The notes beneath the pieces were generated by a model. That model was not told where the DNA came from, did no database searches, and worked only from the letters and a program-made list of their open reading frames with translations. Made by a program: the position numbers and the translations under genes. From IMG/VR virus record IMGVR_UViG_3300013121_000017, positions 160,001 through 224,000 of that record: a DNA stretch of 64,000 nucleotides; one strand, given 5' to 3'. Source of the stretch: a virus. Taxonomy: Duplodnaviria > Caudoviricetes. Of this stretch, positions 35,704-41,060 are shown piece by piece (the stretch's first letter is position 1; every line of letters starts with the position of its first letter).

Positions 35704-36630
35704 GTGAGATTCGATTATTGTCGCAGGTTTGGCCTAGAGGCTGAAGTCAACGCATTCGACGGGCTGAGTCATCCGGCCCAGGAAGGCGCTTTGCCGGCTG
35801 GAATCCAGGCTGTGGCCAACATTGTGGCCCAGACGCTCAAAACGCGGTGCGAGATTTACAACTGGATCAACGGGCAGAAGGCAACCGACTTCAACCCATT
35901 CTGGGTCGTCAAACCGGATGGCAGTTGCGGGATGGAAGTTTGTTCTCCCGTTAGCAAGGGCTTGCGTGGCATTGATCAGGGGGCCGCTGTTGTGGCAGCC
36001 TTACGGGACAGTCGTCTGGTCAAAGCAGACGGGCGGTGTTCGCTTCACGTTCACACCGAAGTAGCAGACCTGGGAACCGAGCAGATTGCCTCGGTGTTGG
36101 CGCACTGGGTCAAGTGCGAGTATACGATGCTTCTGGCAATGCCCGACCGTCGCAAGAAAAACCGCTACTGTCAACCAATCGGCATGTCAGATTTGCTTCG
36201 CGCCGATCAGTTGTTGCCGCCGGCCATGCTCATCAACCGTCTGGGAGCGTACAAATACTACACCGCAAACGCCTTCCATTACAGCCGAAGCAAGCGACCG
36301 ACCATAGAATTCCGCATCGCCGACGAAGAGGCGTGTCTGAATCCGTACTACTTCAGAAACTGGTGCAAGCTGATCATTCATTTTGTGGAGCTTGCGTCTG
36401 AAATCCCATATCCAAAGGATTACAACCCGAACGATCCCAACTCGGGGTACTTGTGGTTGTTCCCAGAGGACGTGTTGAAGCTGTTGAAGTTTGACAGACG
36501 CGACAAACTTTGCCCGGAACTTCAAGAAACGTGTGACTGGTTCGTGAAGCGGATCAATGACAATAGACACAGTCAGCTTGGCGGCATCTGGGATGACAAG
36601 GTCGTTGATGCCGTGTGGCAGCCTAAATAA
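35704..36630 (+). CDS. Putative amidoligase (COOH-NH2 ligase family)
   Basis: FGLEAE, W.VKPDGS, EVCSP, CSLHVH, TIEFR. Confidence 0.82.
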   Translation: MRFDYCRRFGLEAEVNAFDGLSHPAQEGALPAGIQAVANIVAQTLKTRCEIYNWINGQKATDFNPFWVVKPDGSCGMEVCSPVSKGLRGIDQGAAVVAALRDSRLVKADGRCSLHVHTEVADLGTEQIASVLAHWVKCEYTMLLAMPDRRKKNRYCQPIGMSDLLRADQLLPPAMLINRLGAYKYYTANAFHYSRSKRPTIEFRIADEEACLNPYYFRNWCKLIIHFVELASEIPYPKDYNPNDPNSGYLWLFPEDVLKLLKFDRRDKLCPELQETCDWFVKRINDNRHSQLGGIWDDKVVDAVWQPK

Positions 36631-36643
36631 CGCGGAGGCTAAC

Positions 36644-37111
36644 ATGCTGCTGGTATACAAACAAGAACCACTCGAAAAAATGGTAGCTCAGATGCGTCGG
36701 ATGGGTGAGATGCTCATTCCTCACACCTACCCGATGACGCCCAAGTCTGAAGCTGAGGACATCGCTCCTCTCAAACTGCGTGAGATGATGGTGGACGGCT
36801 ACCAGATCTACGTCCAGTACAACAAGGGAAACTACGGCGAGTATTTCCTTGAGTCGGTTGAGATCATCAACAAGAACGCGCCATTTTTGCCGTTCGTACT
36901 CGTTTGCAAGATAGGAAAAGCTTTCCTTGGTGACAAGCACTTGGCTTACGTTTCTTTCTGGACTGACAACCGTCGCCACTACGTCTGGACTTTAGCCAAG
37001 GATGAGGAAGATCAGCCCATGCCTGGGCCGTACAAGGTGGAAATGGAATCGAACCAGTATGAAGGGCTAGAATACGATGTCTTGCCCAACGGTGGCGTGA
37101 ACTTTCACTAA
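36644..37111 (+). CDS. Hypothetical protein
   Basis: TAAATA and GGAGG upstream. Confidence 0.7.
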   Translation: MLLVYKQEPLEKMVAQMRRMGEMLIPHTYPMTPKSEAEDIAPLKLREMMVDGYQIYVQYNKGNYGEYFLESVEIINKNAPFLPFVLVCKIGKAFLGDKHLAYVSFWTDNRRHYVWTLAKDEEDQPMPGPYKVEMESNQYEGLEYDVLPNGGVNFH

Positions 37112-37176
37112 TTTACTGGGGTACAAACGTGTCCACAGTTGACACCACTAGAATGAAGTACCCGAATGGAGGATAC

Positions 37177-38511
37177 ATGAGCAAGAACGAATGGCTCAAA
37201 AGAGCCGAACAACGTAAGGCAACAACCACCAAGAGCGTCCGCGAACGAGCCGCTGAATCCAAGAAGGTGGTAGAGAACATCAAGAAGGCCGTTCCCGATG
37301 CAACTGTCTTCGTGAACTGCTGCACCCGCGACAAGATCCAGATCAAAGACGGTCGGGTCGAGTTTCTGGAGCCTGGAACGCCGCCGGCTCGCCGTGTGTA
37401 CACGTCCGAGGCTCTCGAAGAGAGCCTCAGCCAAGATGATCTACTCCACGAACGCTGGCATCAGCCAGCTACAGATGAGGACATCTGCGTTCCGATTCGC
37501 CCGACTGCGGAAGCCAAAAGGTACGACCACCTTCAACTGATGGAAGACGCGATGGTCGTCTACCAAGTTGGCAGAAGCGAACCCAAGGGTCCGACTGGTC
37601 CAGTCGGAGAGCCAGGGCCGCAGGGCTGTCCCGGCGAAGACTATCTGGGCGAAACCGAAGATGTGGCTTACTTCAAGAACAAGCTGTTCAACGCCATGAA
37701 GATGCCGAAGGAAGTCTCGAAGAAGCTGGCTTCCGAGGACATCAAGTTCGCGCGGGAGTACGAGAAGCAGACTGGCGAATCGCTGTGTGAGTGGAAGGAG
37801 TTGAACTCCAAGGAACTGATGCAGCAGGCCAAGCTTCAGAAGTTGGAAGAACTGAAGATCCAAGTCATGTCGCAGAACCCGTCTTACCTGGGTGTGCCTG
37901 CGTCCCAGTTCAGCAGTTCGGTTTCTATTGGGAGCCAGGGTTTCCAGGGGTGCATGACGCTAAGTGGTCAGAACAACAATCAGCAGTTCCACTACAGCGG
38001 CTCATGTGACACCCTCCAGAAGGGAACTCCGATTCATTTCCAGCCAGAGCAGATCAGCTACCACACCATCGGGGAAGACCGTCGCGTCTTCAGCATCGAG
38101 GTGAAGCCCGAGAACTCTGAGAAGTTCATCGAGAAGCTGAAGGCTGAGTTCAGGAAGAAGGCGTTGAAGAACGTCGAGGCTCAGGCTGCTGATTCTGAGA
38201 TGTGGTTCGCCCCGAACGGTCTGAATCGGGGCAACATCCCCAACATCATCGACGTGTTCGCTGACATCGCGGCGGAAGCCTACATTCAGGTGTCTGCTAA
38301 GGTGGACAAGATGTGCAACGAGGTCTTTCTCGACACCGGCTTCACGATCAACACGCCGCCTCCAGAGGGTATCGTCGGGGCCGGCAGTATCACGATCACC
38401 GCGACATCGCCGACCCTGATGGCAGACTCGATGATCGGCGGAAGCATCATCAGTGGGCCTACTCTGTCGCCGGTCAACGGGGACTATAACATCAACATCG
38501 GCGGATGTTGA
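37177..38511 (+). CDS. Mosaic protein of shuffled gp20-type portal motifs with a collagen-like linker
   Basis: LQLMEDAMVVY, LGETEDVAYFKNKLFNAMKMP, EDIKFAR, RRVFSIEV out of canonical order; GGAGG RBS. Confidence 0.7.
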   Translation: MSKNEWLKRAEQRKATTTKSVRERAAESKKVVENIKKAVPDATVFVNCCTRDKIQIKDGRVEFLEPGTPPARRVYTSEALEESLSQDDLLHERWHQPATDEDICVPIRPTAEAKRYDHLQLMEDAMVVYQVGRSEPKGPTGPVGEPGPQGCPGEDYLGETEDVAYFKNKLFNAMKMPKEVSKKLASEDIKFAREYEKQTGESLCEWKELNSKELMQQAKLQKLEELKIQVMSQNPSYLGVPASQFSSSVSIGSQGFQGCMTLSGQNNNQQFHYSGSCDTLQKGTPIHFQPEQISYHTIGEDRRVFSIEVKPENSEKFIEKLKAEFRKKALKNVEAQAADSEMWFAPNGLNRGNIPNIIDVFADIAAEAYIQVSAKVDKMCNEVFLDTGFTINTPPPEGIVGAGSITITATSPTLMADSMIGGSIISGPTLSPVNGDYNINIGGC

Positions 38512-38546
38512 TGGAATCGCTTCGAGCGATTTTTGGAATCTTTCTG

Positions 38547-38660
38547 ATGCTCATTATTGACGGGCATCCGAAGGAAAAAGCCTGGGGCTGCGGATGTTTG
38601 GTCGCGGTCCTGGGTATTTTGAGTTTGGCTGGTTACGGCCTGTACAAGCTCTTGTTGTAA
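38547..38660 (+). CDS. 37-aa membrane peptide
   Basis: GCGCLVAVLGILSLAGYGLY hydrophobic stretch. Confidence 0.4.
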   Translation: MLIIDGHPKEKAWGCGCLVAVLGILSLAGYGLYKLLL

Positions 38661-38703
38661 GCCTACCGGCGGGTAATCACCGGATTTGTGTCCGATAATT
38701 GGA

Positions 38704-38735
38704 AACGGCGATGACAGAGGTCATCGCCGTTTTTT
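38704..38735. terminator. Bidirectional terminator
   Basis: AAACGGCGATGAC-AGAG-GTCATCGCCGTTTTTT between convergent genes. Confidence 0.8.
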
Positions 38736-39150
38736 ATTCTTCCTTCGGCTTCTTTGGCTTCTCGCCCGCGCCGGGCTTGTACTCTTTGCCAACTTTCCAG
38801 TTTCGCTTCACATCTTTGTGATCCCAGTATTTGCAGCACATACGCTCGGTGACAACCAGTTCAAGGTCTGGGTGCTTGCAGAACATCATGCCGCCGCTCT
38901 TGTCGGCGGCATACTTGCAGTTGCCGCAGTTCGTGCCTTCGATCTTCTCAGGCAGCACAATCAGGTCGGCGTGCTTGAATTTCTTGACCTGTTCTTCGGT
39001 GGTTGGACGGATGCCGTGATCCGGCGTGAACTCGCCGGGCGTCTCCGGTGTCTTCGCGTCTTTTTCGGCTTTGAGCCAGTCCTTGAAGGTTCCCATGACA
39101 GTAGTTATGCCGAAGCCGAGGGGCATTTTTTTGAAACTTTTTGGGTCCAT
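38734..39150 (-). CDS. Protein with a HiPIP-like Cys motif
   Basis: NCGNCKY..FC..V....CCKYW; TATAAATA 7 nt upstream. Confidence 0.6.
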   Translation of the reverse strand: MDPKSFKKMPLGFGITTVMGTFKDWLKAEKDAKTPETPGEFTPDHGIRPTTEEQVKKFKHADLIVLPEKIEGTNCGNCKYAADKSGGMMFCKHPDLELVVTERMCCKYWDHKDVKRNWKVGKEYKPGAGEKPKKPKEE

Positions 39151-39157
39151 CTTCGTC

Positions 39158-39165
39158 TATTTATA
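39158..39165 (-). promoter_or_regulatory. T4-type late promoter
   Basis: Exact TATAAATA on the minus strand. Confidence 0.6.
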
Positions 39166-40071: not shown

Positions 40072-40569
40072 TTACTGACCGTAATTGCAGCCTTCCATGT
40101 CATACTCGTAGCTGATCACGATCCTGTGACGACCCGGCGGCTTGTTGAAGGTGAGGCTTAGTTCCCCAGTCGTCAGATTCAATTCACCAGTCTTGGCAAA
40201 CACGTCCGAAACGTCAAGGGCAAACTTGACGGCCCCAAACTCAAACTTGCCGCTTGAGGAGACAGTAAAAGTCTGGATGGGTTTGGTTCCTGGGTCTTCC
40301 AACTGGATCGTACCAGTTAGCGTACCGGCCAGAACTGGTGTATGTTCAAGGATGAAATAGGAGAACTTTTCGTGGCCATTGTTGTACTGGGTTTCGCCCT
40401 GAACGAATTGGCTGGAGTAGAAGATGTCGAGGTTGGCGCAACCGTAGTCGCCCTGCATCATGCTGAATTCGTCGTCCTGGGGGAATCCTCTGTTCTTTTC
40501 TTTGGATTTCTTCAGCCAGTAGTTGTCAGGCTGTTGGGTGTAAAGACGTTCTCGGTCAAAGATGGACAT
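40072..40569 (-). CDS. Beta-rich protein resembling a major capsid protein insertion region
   Basis: GFP.DD..ANLDIFYSSQFVQ, LEHTPVLAGT.TG, LTTGEL, SYEY.ME (recalled MCP similarity); AAAGGA RBS. Confidence 0.55.
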   Translation of the reverse strand: MSIFDRERLYTQQPDNYWLKKSKEKNRGFPQDDEFSMMQGDYGCANLDIFYSSQFVQGETQYNNGHEKFSYFILEHTPVLAGTLTGTIQLEDPGTKPIQTFTVSSSGKFEFGAVKFALDVSDVFAKTGELNLTTGELSLTFNKPPGRHRIVISYEYDMEGCNYGQ

Positions 40570-41060
40570 TCTTTCCTTTCGTGATTGACGTAAGTGGCTT
40601 CCATGAACCGCCAGACGATGTTGATTTCCACGTCGGCCCGCGACGAGTAACAAAGCTCGCCGAAGTCCACGGTATGGGGCCATAGTCCCTTGAGGGTCCA
40701 CTCCTCAATCATAGTGCCGGACTGCTTGTGCCAGCGTTGAAGGATGCCCTCACCTAACTTACACGCCACAGACTTCATCAACTCGTCGGGGTCTTTGGCG
40801 GTCTTGAATACTTCAGCGCCAATCTCGTAACAGTTGACGAGGATCGGGCAGATGTCAGGGAACTCGCTAGGTATCTCTTCCGGCCAGAAGTATTCGACGC
40901 GGAGCGGCAGCCAGCGGGTCTTCCCAGGACGTTTTGTGCCGTCCGGGTCAACGATTTCCTCAACGAGCATCTTGGGACGCTCGGGGACTTGAACGACGTG
41001 GTTCTTGGTGGTGTGGTTTGGGAACTTCGCCTGGAAGTAGTAAATGAAGGTGTCACGCAT
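40512..41060 (-). CDS. Divergent gp19-like tail tube protein paralog
   Basis: RP....EE..PGK.RW, IEEWTLKGLWP..VDFGEL.YSS. Confidence 0.7.
   Translation of the reverse strand: MRDTFIYYFQAKFPNHTTKNHVVQVPERPKMLVEEIVDPDGTKRPGKTRWLPLRVEYFWPEEIPSEFPDICPILVNCYEIGAEVFKTAKDPDELMKSVACKLGEGILQRWHKQSGTMIEEWTLKGLWPHTVDFGELCYSSRADVEINIVWRFMEATYVNHERKECPSLTENVFTPNSLTTTG

Follow-up and report, generated by a model that had tools for sequence, protein, structure and literature searches.

Bacterial sensors that detect conserved virion proteins are known, and we know of few phage answers to them. Phage T4 carries small, polymorphic and fast-changing internal proteins that are targeted to the capsid by a short N-terminal peptide, and circularly permuted proteins are known in which the fold is kept and the segments are rearranged by one cyclic shift. 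As for phage answers to host sensors, DSAD1 of Bacillus phage SPbeta mimics the tail tube protein and traps the DSR2 sensor (PMC10973363). Here we describe a gene at positions 37177..38511 (+) of a 64,000-nucleotide stretch of phage DNA (Duplodnaviria; Caudoviricetes), hereafter the window, that comprises bases 160001-224000 of the 261,680-bp IMG/VR virus record IMGVR_UViG_3300013121_000017 (CheckV completeness 52%). The protein that this gene encodes, hereafter the mosaic, is a string of portal-protein segments mixed with pieces related to other virion proteins. Its source is a T4-type giant phage, of whose genome the 261-kb fragment makes up roughly half. The capsid protein is 78% identical to that of the nearest relative, the 595-kb uncultured phage LR756511.1, and the window DNA recurs in activated-sludge and wastewater metagenomes.

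Seven segments of the mosaic are homologous to the phage's own portal, a protein of the T4 gp20 type (PF07230; PDB 3JA7). Unlike in T4 gp20, however, these segments are reordered and interleaved with pieces from the protease and the sheath, the gene is not part of the head module, and the genome has a separate full-length portal. The mosaic is like permuted or domain-shuffled proteins in that homologous segments stand in non-native order in one frame, but unlike circular permutations it has several breakpoints, several parents, no conserved fold and other orders in its relatives. As with the T4 internal proteins, a short shared N-terminal peptide heads variable proteins in the mosaic family, although the leader sequence is a different one and the bodies of the mosaics copy virion-protein motifs. 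Finally, in regards to DSAD1, the mosaic likewise appears to be an accessory phage protein that imitates a conserved virion protein, which makes DSAD1 the best precedent for the role as a decoy that is weighed below. DSAD1 nevertheless has one target, structural mimicry and proven sensor binding (PMC10973363), whereas the mosaic consists of linear pieces of several virion proteins and is known from sequence alone.

Portal segments in non-native order share one open reading frame

The reading frame is open from a GTG at 37129 to 38511 (+), and the start codon is the ATG at 37177. A ribosome-binding site, GGAGGA, lies 5 nt ahead of this ATG, and every homologue begins at the Met that it encodes. 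This leaves 444 codons plus stop. An initial annotation of this DNA had described a long open frame at 37177-38511 that contains a series of portal-like peptides, and the frame and all of the peptides listed are indeed there. Note that its residue numbers (88-98, 108-125 and 353-381 among them) count from the open reading frame (ORF) that begins at 37129.

The mosaic passes the threshold of the Pfam family Portal_T4 (PF07230) with 36.5 bits against a cut-off of 22.9 (E 3.2e-9). The match is made up of two short stretches that cover profile positions 183-204 and 275-317 of 433, with the best stretch at mosaic residues 168-209 (blocks D/E below), and the portal family phrog_213 is matched with an E value of 3.7e-9. 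A family hidden Markov model (HMM) built from four full-length homologues recognizes the phage's own portal (852 aa, genome 16475-19033) with an E value of 3.1e-29 in 7 permuted pieces. Direct comparison of the mosaic with this portal gave seven ungapped blocks with scores of 49-96 and identities of about 40-62% inside the blocks; in a control with 20 shuffles the maximum score was usually 30-41, with one shuffle reaching 49, which is the score of the weakest block. The order of the blocks in the mosaic, given in own-portal coordinates, is 555-579, 493-508, 584-642, 717-765, 450-475 and 510-541. The blocks are non-collinear with the portal, no single circular shift relates the two orders, and at least three breakpoints separate them. 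The portal sequence between the blocks is deleted, and only ~145 of the roughly 520 residues of the portal core are kept, about 70% of that core being absent. The initial annotation had proposed just this combination of portal likeness, reordered blocks and deleted intervening sequence.

We assigned the blocks to portal domains by aligning the own portal to T4 gp20 (3JA7, E 3.5e-31) and using the domain limits in PMC4493910. The resulting domain order in the mosaic is clip, stem helix, channel loop and stem, tunnel loop and wing helix, crown, wing strand, clip, with all blocks on the plus strand. Specifically, block C (37444..37518; own portal 555-579; T4 gp20 ~319-347; score 74) contains the clip beta-strands and the inner clip loop. 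Block B1 (37519..37581; own portal 493-508; T4 264-279; score 54) is stem helix alpha5, which stands behind C, out of portal order, with a remnant of the portal N-terminal motif in front of it; the HMM pieces in this area correspond to portal 63-86 and 492-508. Blocks D and E (37630..37779; own portal 584-642; T4 351-414; scores 78 and 49) represent, respectively, the channel loop with stem helix alpha7 and a shortened tunnel loop with the beginning of wing helix alpha8. Block F (37798..37902; own portal 717-749; T4 ~491-524; score 96) is the crown helix and is the commonest block across the family described below, being found in ~14 members. In blocks A and B2 (38014..38163; own portal 450-475 and 510-541; T4 222-247 and 281-312; scores 59 and 57) the last wing strand (A) runs straight into the first clip strand and helix alpha6 (B2), with stem helix B1 deleted between them. 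The motif Glu-Arg-x-x-Phe-Tyr is present twice in the parent portal and the A/B2 junction falls at this short direct repeat, which fits a deletion by illegitimate recombination. Among the junctions, for which the initial annotation had suggested a microhomology analysis, this one from wing strand to clip is the one that falls at such a repeat.

Conserved portal positions are enriched in the segments that have been kept (0.63 versus 0.52, a difference reached by 112 of 5000 permutations), and invariant portal residues are retained within the blocks. We also considered whether the blocks are specially close to the phage's own portal and rejected this, as the own portal comes first by a narrow margin only (399 versus 385). 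The own portal (L001:553-3111) itself holds an intein-like insert of ~230 aa, whose first residue, a Cys, follows a conserved N-terminal motif and whose final His-Asn precedes a Cys, and related portals of 830-1665 aa seem to hold one to three intein-like inserts at three conserved sites.

Protease and sheath pieces, linkers and leader

The portal blocks are preceded by a piece of a gp21-type prohead-protease N-terminus (37291..37428, +) that is partly deleted in the mosaic and kept as a full block in the orthologue P0004. Family HMM positions 43-99 match residues 5-62 of the phage's own protease with an E value of 9.1e-8 (mosaic residues ~55-100), and P0004 residues 46-117 match the protease at genome 25140-25337 with an E value of 6e-9. 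The parent protease gene is a Peptidase_S77 in Pfam (E 5.3e-28), and Pfam also confirmed the other parent-type genes of the genome, namely Gp23, sheath and TerL. The HMM match to the Peptidase_S77 protein supports the earlier suggestion that the peptide RRVYTSEALEE (88-98) derives from the prohead protease. An intein origin of the nearby Cys-Cys block (residues ~60-66) was rejected, as this block aligns with the protease N-terminus instead.

A tail-sheath motif lies downstream of the last portal block (38194..38259, +) and corresponds to residues 614-635 of the own sheath. In a tblastn search of the whole genome, mosaic residues 356-377 are 64% identical to the own sheath over 22 aa (E 0.004), and the family HMM recognizes the own sheath with an E value of 0.0019; the parent sheath gene matches PF04984 and PF17482. 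The initial annotation had taken residues 353-362 as a second copy of the portal clip block at 108-125 and 369-381 as a further portal motif, from the portal N-terminus. Both assignments have to be abandoned since residues 353-381 form this single sheath motif (own sheath 614-637), and the mosaic has no duplicated block.

The first 14 residues constitute a basic N-terminal leader (37177..37218, +) with the pattern M-K-N-x-W-L-x-R followed by a Lys/Arg-rich run, and this leader is common to many family members. No parent for these residues was identified, and a derivation from the TerL N-terminus was unconvincing. Between the two stem helices, where a portal has its clip domain, the mosaic has a collagen-like Gly-X-Y linker of about 5 triplets (37582..37635, +), which scores 10.5 bits against the cut-off of 27.2 for the collagen-like class PF01391 and so falls outside that class. 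Matches of the mosaic to tail-fibre PHROGs are weak. A second linker, rich in Gln, Ser and Gly (37903..38013, +), has a weak likeness to the phage's own collagen-like fibre genes; its tblastn match at genome 37.4-37.6 kb is of low complexity and not significant (E 0.37). Long Gly-X-Y coding repeats, probably belonging to fibre genes, are present at genome ~35.4-37.6 kb (-) and weakly resemble both mosaic linkers. Finally, the C-terminal 83 residues (38260..38508, +), the last of which is Cys, are kept in P0004 and are modeled with a predicted local distance difference test (pLDDT) value below 50, and no parent for them was found in the own genome or LR756511.1.

The mosaic is very probably a real and selected gene

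Several results make it very probable that this gene is a real, selected motif mosaic. Contigs that are 100% identical to the window come from two independent DNA studies of wastewater, and these contigs bridge the clip/stem/linker junctions (37489-37648) as well as the wing/clip junction (37998-38148). A homologue, P0005, is likewise identical in three separate assemblies. When the mosaic is compared with the portal gene inside the shared blocks, the nucleotide identity is 51-74%, no exact run exceeds 14 nt, changes at synonymous sites have reached saturation, and the same codon is used at 48 of the 87 identical residues where 42.4 are expected from codon usage. Codon agreement this near to expectation, together with the level of nucleotide identity, rules out recent copying and a chimera. 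The saturated synonymous sites and the 14-nt longest exact run also contradict a recent gene conversion or a decoy that acts at the DNA level. Thus the assembly chimera that the initial annotation had named as a possible source of error is excluded, both by the identical contigs in two studies and by the lack of DNA identity to the parents.

Selection is evident from a comparison of the mosaic with the P0004 gene (L007), where the ratio of nonsynonymous to synonymous substitution rates (dN/dS) is 0.233/0.772 = 0.30 over 425 codons. P0004 has 534 aa and is 68% identical over aligned columns (52% by BLASTP). In a variant that is 90-97% alike, 8 of the 11 listed in-gene differences are at third codon positions and the indels are in frame. 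The full-length homologues P0004, P0005 and P0006 all retain the open frame, the blocks and the block order, down to the 29% identity (by BLASTP) of the 503-aa P0005. In P0005 (L004:10001-11512) and P0006 the Gly-X-Y linker is replaced by a ~45-residue Cys/Asp-rich stretch, and the protease-like Cys-Cys piece and the portal clip/stem blocks are C-terminal rather than N-terminal, so that these two proteins look rotated.

The mosaic is a fast-evolving accessory gene. When the window is compared with the related contig L004, the flanking genes are 65-82% identical while the mosaic is 29% identical. Positional orthologues have 444, 503 and 215 aa and differ by whole blocks, and the family profile found no mosaic in LR756511.1, the closest complete relative.

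In regards to structure, an AlphaFold2 model based on seven sequences has a pLDDT of 42 and a predicted template modeling score (pTM) of 0.24, with helices only at the blocks that are helical in the parent, and the ESM Atlas model has a pLDDT of 0.36. A portal fold is seen in neither model, although models of such low confidence are weak evidence on the portal fold, and the AlphaFold2 model is too poor for a fold search. A predicted complex of the portal P0007 with mosaic residues 100-350 scored 0.00, which is no verdict and is used for neither side. The architecture of the mosaic is that of beads on a string, without a confident globular fold.

An undescribed family of motif strings

A search of 1.84 billion representative proteins with the family profile gave 75 matches. 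Many of these are true portals, often with inteins, while ~20 are short proteins of 70-420 aa that contain the same blocks in other orders, which are the relatives that the initial annotation had proposed to look for. Family members also hold pieces of the capsid protein (three regions), the sheath N-terminus, the protease active-site region and the TerL ATPase. The limits of the blocks recur across the family, with the protease block starting at protease residue 31-34 every time. Some derived features are common to the mosaics and absent from the portals, which suggests a long exchange of blocks among mosaics. A scan of back-translated IMG/VR sequences for the protease block returned 75 true proteases and five other ORFs, one of which is a mosaic of 209 aa whose contig (254 kb) encodes a true protease as well.

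Other searches delimit the family. A word-index search for shorter relatives gave none at an E value of 1e-3, and an IMG/VR scan with family patterns gave no further relatives. A scan of species-representative genomes returned true intein-bearing portals only, the sole match among GenBank phages was the portal of LR756511.1, and no description of such motif-string proteins was found in the literature. No over-represented C-terminal tag was found in the own genome; the N-terminal leader is the common element, and it is internal rather than N-terminal in the family member P0033. Judging from these comparisons, the mosaic belongs to an undescribed family of motif strings that are probably molecular mimics. 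Such genes exceed the Pfam portal threshold and so would be mis-annotated as portal proteins.

Several additional ORFs share elements with this family. A 266-aa paralogue with a mosaic leader and the TerL ATPase, but without the nuclease domain, is encoded just after the portal (L008:8049-8849, genome 19048-19848), and in the related database protein P0063 a TerL piece of this type is fused to blocks from the protease and the portal. LR756511.1 has two highly basic ORFs of ~40 aa that are hardly more than the leader (L115 near 230.4 kb and L116 near 535.2 kb), one of them near the portal region. On a 669-kb contig a 155-aa mosaic directly follows TerL, with a gene that has matches to the Acb1 / 2'-5' RNA ligase family one gene downstream (L010:10818-11339).

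The likeness of the blocks to their parents is maintained at the protein level and not at the DNA level. Since the relatives reuse the same vocabulary of blocks in other orders, each block appears to act alone as a linear motif. The lack of a confident fold, the tolerance of reordering, and the gain and loss of whole blocks similarly lead us to infer that the blocks act as autonomous linear motifs. The selected trait appears to be the resemblance to conserved virion segments as such. The initial annotation had viewed the protein as a selected string of conserved portal epitopes; the selection (dN/dS of 0.30) and the conserved motifs (0.63 versus 0.52) stand, whereas the string is not one of portal segments only.

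Genomic setting of the mosaic

The mosaic is the third of four co-oriented, closely packed genes in a unit that is closed by a strong hairpin. The unit begins with an Amidoligase_2 gene (Pfam; 35704-36630, +; 73% identical to its L004 counterpart), which is followed by an ORF of 155 aa (36644-37111, +; 65% identical to its L004 counterpart) in the same transcription unit as the mosaic, the mosaic itself, and a 51-aa hydrophobic ORF that overlaps the mosaic stop codon (38505..38734 including the terminator, +). The 15-bp hairpin terminator after the 51-aa ORF is at 38701-38734. Synteny of the unit is kept in two related contigs, L004 and L011. The 155-aa ORF is without a family match, yet it is 60-65% identical in related phages, and its position between the Amidoligase_2 gene and the mosaic is constant.

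Genes for gp32, a helicase, a tRNA nucleotidyltransferase and Hsp20 surround the unit. The mosaic is not located in the head-packaging region, as it is 180 kb from the true portal (genome 16475-19033), which has TerL, the protease and the major capsid protein nearby. The whole 64-kb window contains one T4-late-promoter-like motif, and this precedes another gene and not the mosaic. The motif, TATAAATA at 39158-39165 (-), is just upstream of a 138-aa ORF (38734-39150, -) that converges on the terminator of the mosaic operon. Farther along, a 182-aa ORF (40512-41060, -) has a weak match to a tail-tube PHROG (E 6.8e-6) and its neighbor (40072-40701, -) has a weak Ig-like match, both being remote from the tail modules. 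Contigs that are 90-97% alike are found in wastewater metatranscriptome libraries, but DNA carry-over is possible in such libraries and they therefore do not demonstrate expression of the mosaic.

Possible roles of the mosaic

We tentatively favor a role for the mosaic as a multi-target decoy for host sensors of virion proteins. The initial annotation had put forward, as hypotheses, a decoy for Avs4-like sensors or interference with terminase or portal. Under this model the mosaic would be produced from a non-structural operon and would display the conserved segments by which bacterial defences detect unassembled virion proteins. Sensors would then be occupied or misled by the mosaic, in a manner like that of DSAD1 of phage SPbeta with the tail tube protein. 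We are led to this reading because the rate of evolution, the patchiness and the context of the gene resemble those of counter-defence genes, and because sensors of the STAND (signal transduction ATPases with numerous domains) type bind virion-protein cores and a sensor-trapping phage mimic is known. As to context, the mosaic is surrounded by replication genes and has no T4-late-promoter-like motif ahead of it, and one family member is one gene away from an Acb1-like gene directed against the cyclic-oligonucleotide-based antiphage signaling system (CBASS). STAND sensors are reported to bind monomeric virion proteins at their conserved cores and at the interfaces used for oligomerisation, a conserved helical segment being enough in one case (bioRxiv 10.64898/2026.01.04.697583).

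Several points weigh against a decoy. Avs-type sensors are described as reading folded shapes over extended interfaces, and neither the prohead protease nor the tail sheath is among the sensor targets listed in the same study (bioRxiv 10.64898/2026.01.04.697583). A non-globular string may fail to satisfy Avs-type sensors, and a mimic that is good enough might trigger a sensor instead of blocking it. In addition, the enrichment of conserved positions in the kept portal blocks is modest (p about 0.02). A broader version of the decoy model is somewhat doubtful. In it, short cassettes copied from the best-conserved parts of terminase, portal, protease, capsid and sheath would form a recombining library in giant T4-type phages and would be strung behind a common leader in ever-changing orders, as broad-spectrum decoys against bacterial pattern-recognition immunity that display linear motifs and not folded mimics.

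A second explanation, which we consider somewhat unlikely, is that the copied segments act on virion subunits, where the mosaic could be a cap, a holdase or assembly hub, or a dominant-negative poison of co-infecting T4-type relatives. Since the blocks pack against other subunits or partners in the particle, a string of them could cap free subunits. According to the T4 gp20 structure, the portal blocks comprise the clip, to which terminase and neck attach, both stem helices, the channel and tunnel loops and the crown; other family members hold the sheath N-terminal arm and capsid C-terminal pieces, and the invariant portal residues are retained. Order independence and the lack of a fold would also suit multivalent binding through short motifs, and fast evolution would fit competition between phages. 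However, a necessary chaperone is expected to be conserved and universal, whereas the mosaic is patchy and changes by whole blocks, and a poison would also strike the phage's own proteins, as the match of the blocks to its own portal is as good as to any other. The mosaic is also without a late promoter, and we know of no precedent for a protein that acts on virion subunits in this way.

Less probable again is a role as a cargo or accessory virion protein, in which the leader would be an address tag to the head or particle and the blocks would be incidental material. The leader is indeed common to many mosaics, the TerL-ATPase-only paralogue and the two leader-only mini-ORFs of LR756511.1, and the Gly-X-Y and beta-rich tails are reminiscent of fibre proteins. 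On the other hand, the leader is unlike the T4 tag, has no evident cleavage site and is internal in P0033, and the gene is outside the structural modules. Such a role would furthermore leave unexplained why selection has kept exactly the conserved islands.

A true permuted portal paralogue that still folds like a portal, such as a second ring protein, is very improbable: the Pfam Portal_T4 score is above threshold and the run of stem helix, linker, stem helix, wing helix and crown is collinear with a portal minus its clip domain, but the small fraction of the core that is kept, the absence of a single circular shift, the interleaved protease and sheath pieces, the lack of a confident fold and the other orders in relatives all speak against it. 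Equally improbable is a functionless patchwork or an assembly chimera, for while the junction at a short direct repeat suggests an origin by illegitimate recombination, the 444-codon frame is retained in homologues at 68%, 43% and lower identity under a dN/dS well below one, and the bridged junctions in independent studies, the homologue that is identical in three assemblies and the lack of DNA-level identity to parent genes contradict a chimera.

If conserved segments of several virion proteins have indeed been strung together under selection, with no dependence on their order, the mosaic would represent a phage protein of a new kind. It would offer a direct experimental handle on the question of which parts of the portal, protease, capsid and sheath are important in recognition or in assembly, on whether linear mimics can blunt pattern recognition, and on the way in which reshuffled pieces of essential genes give rise to new ones.

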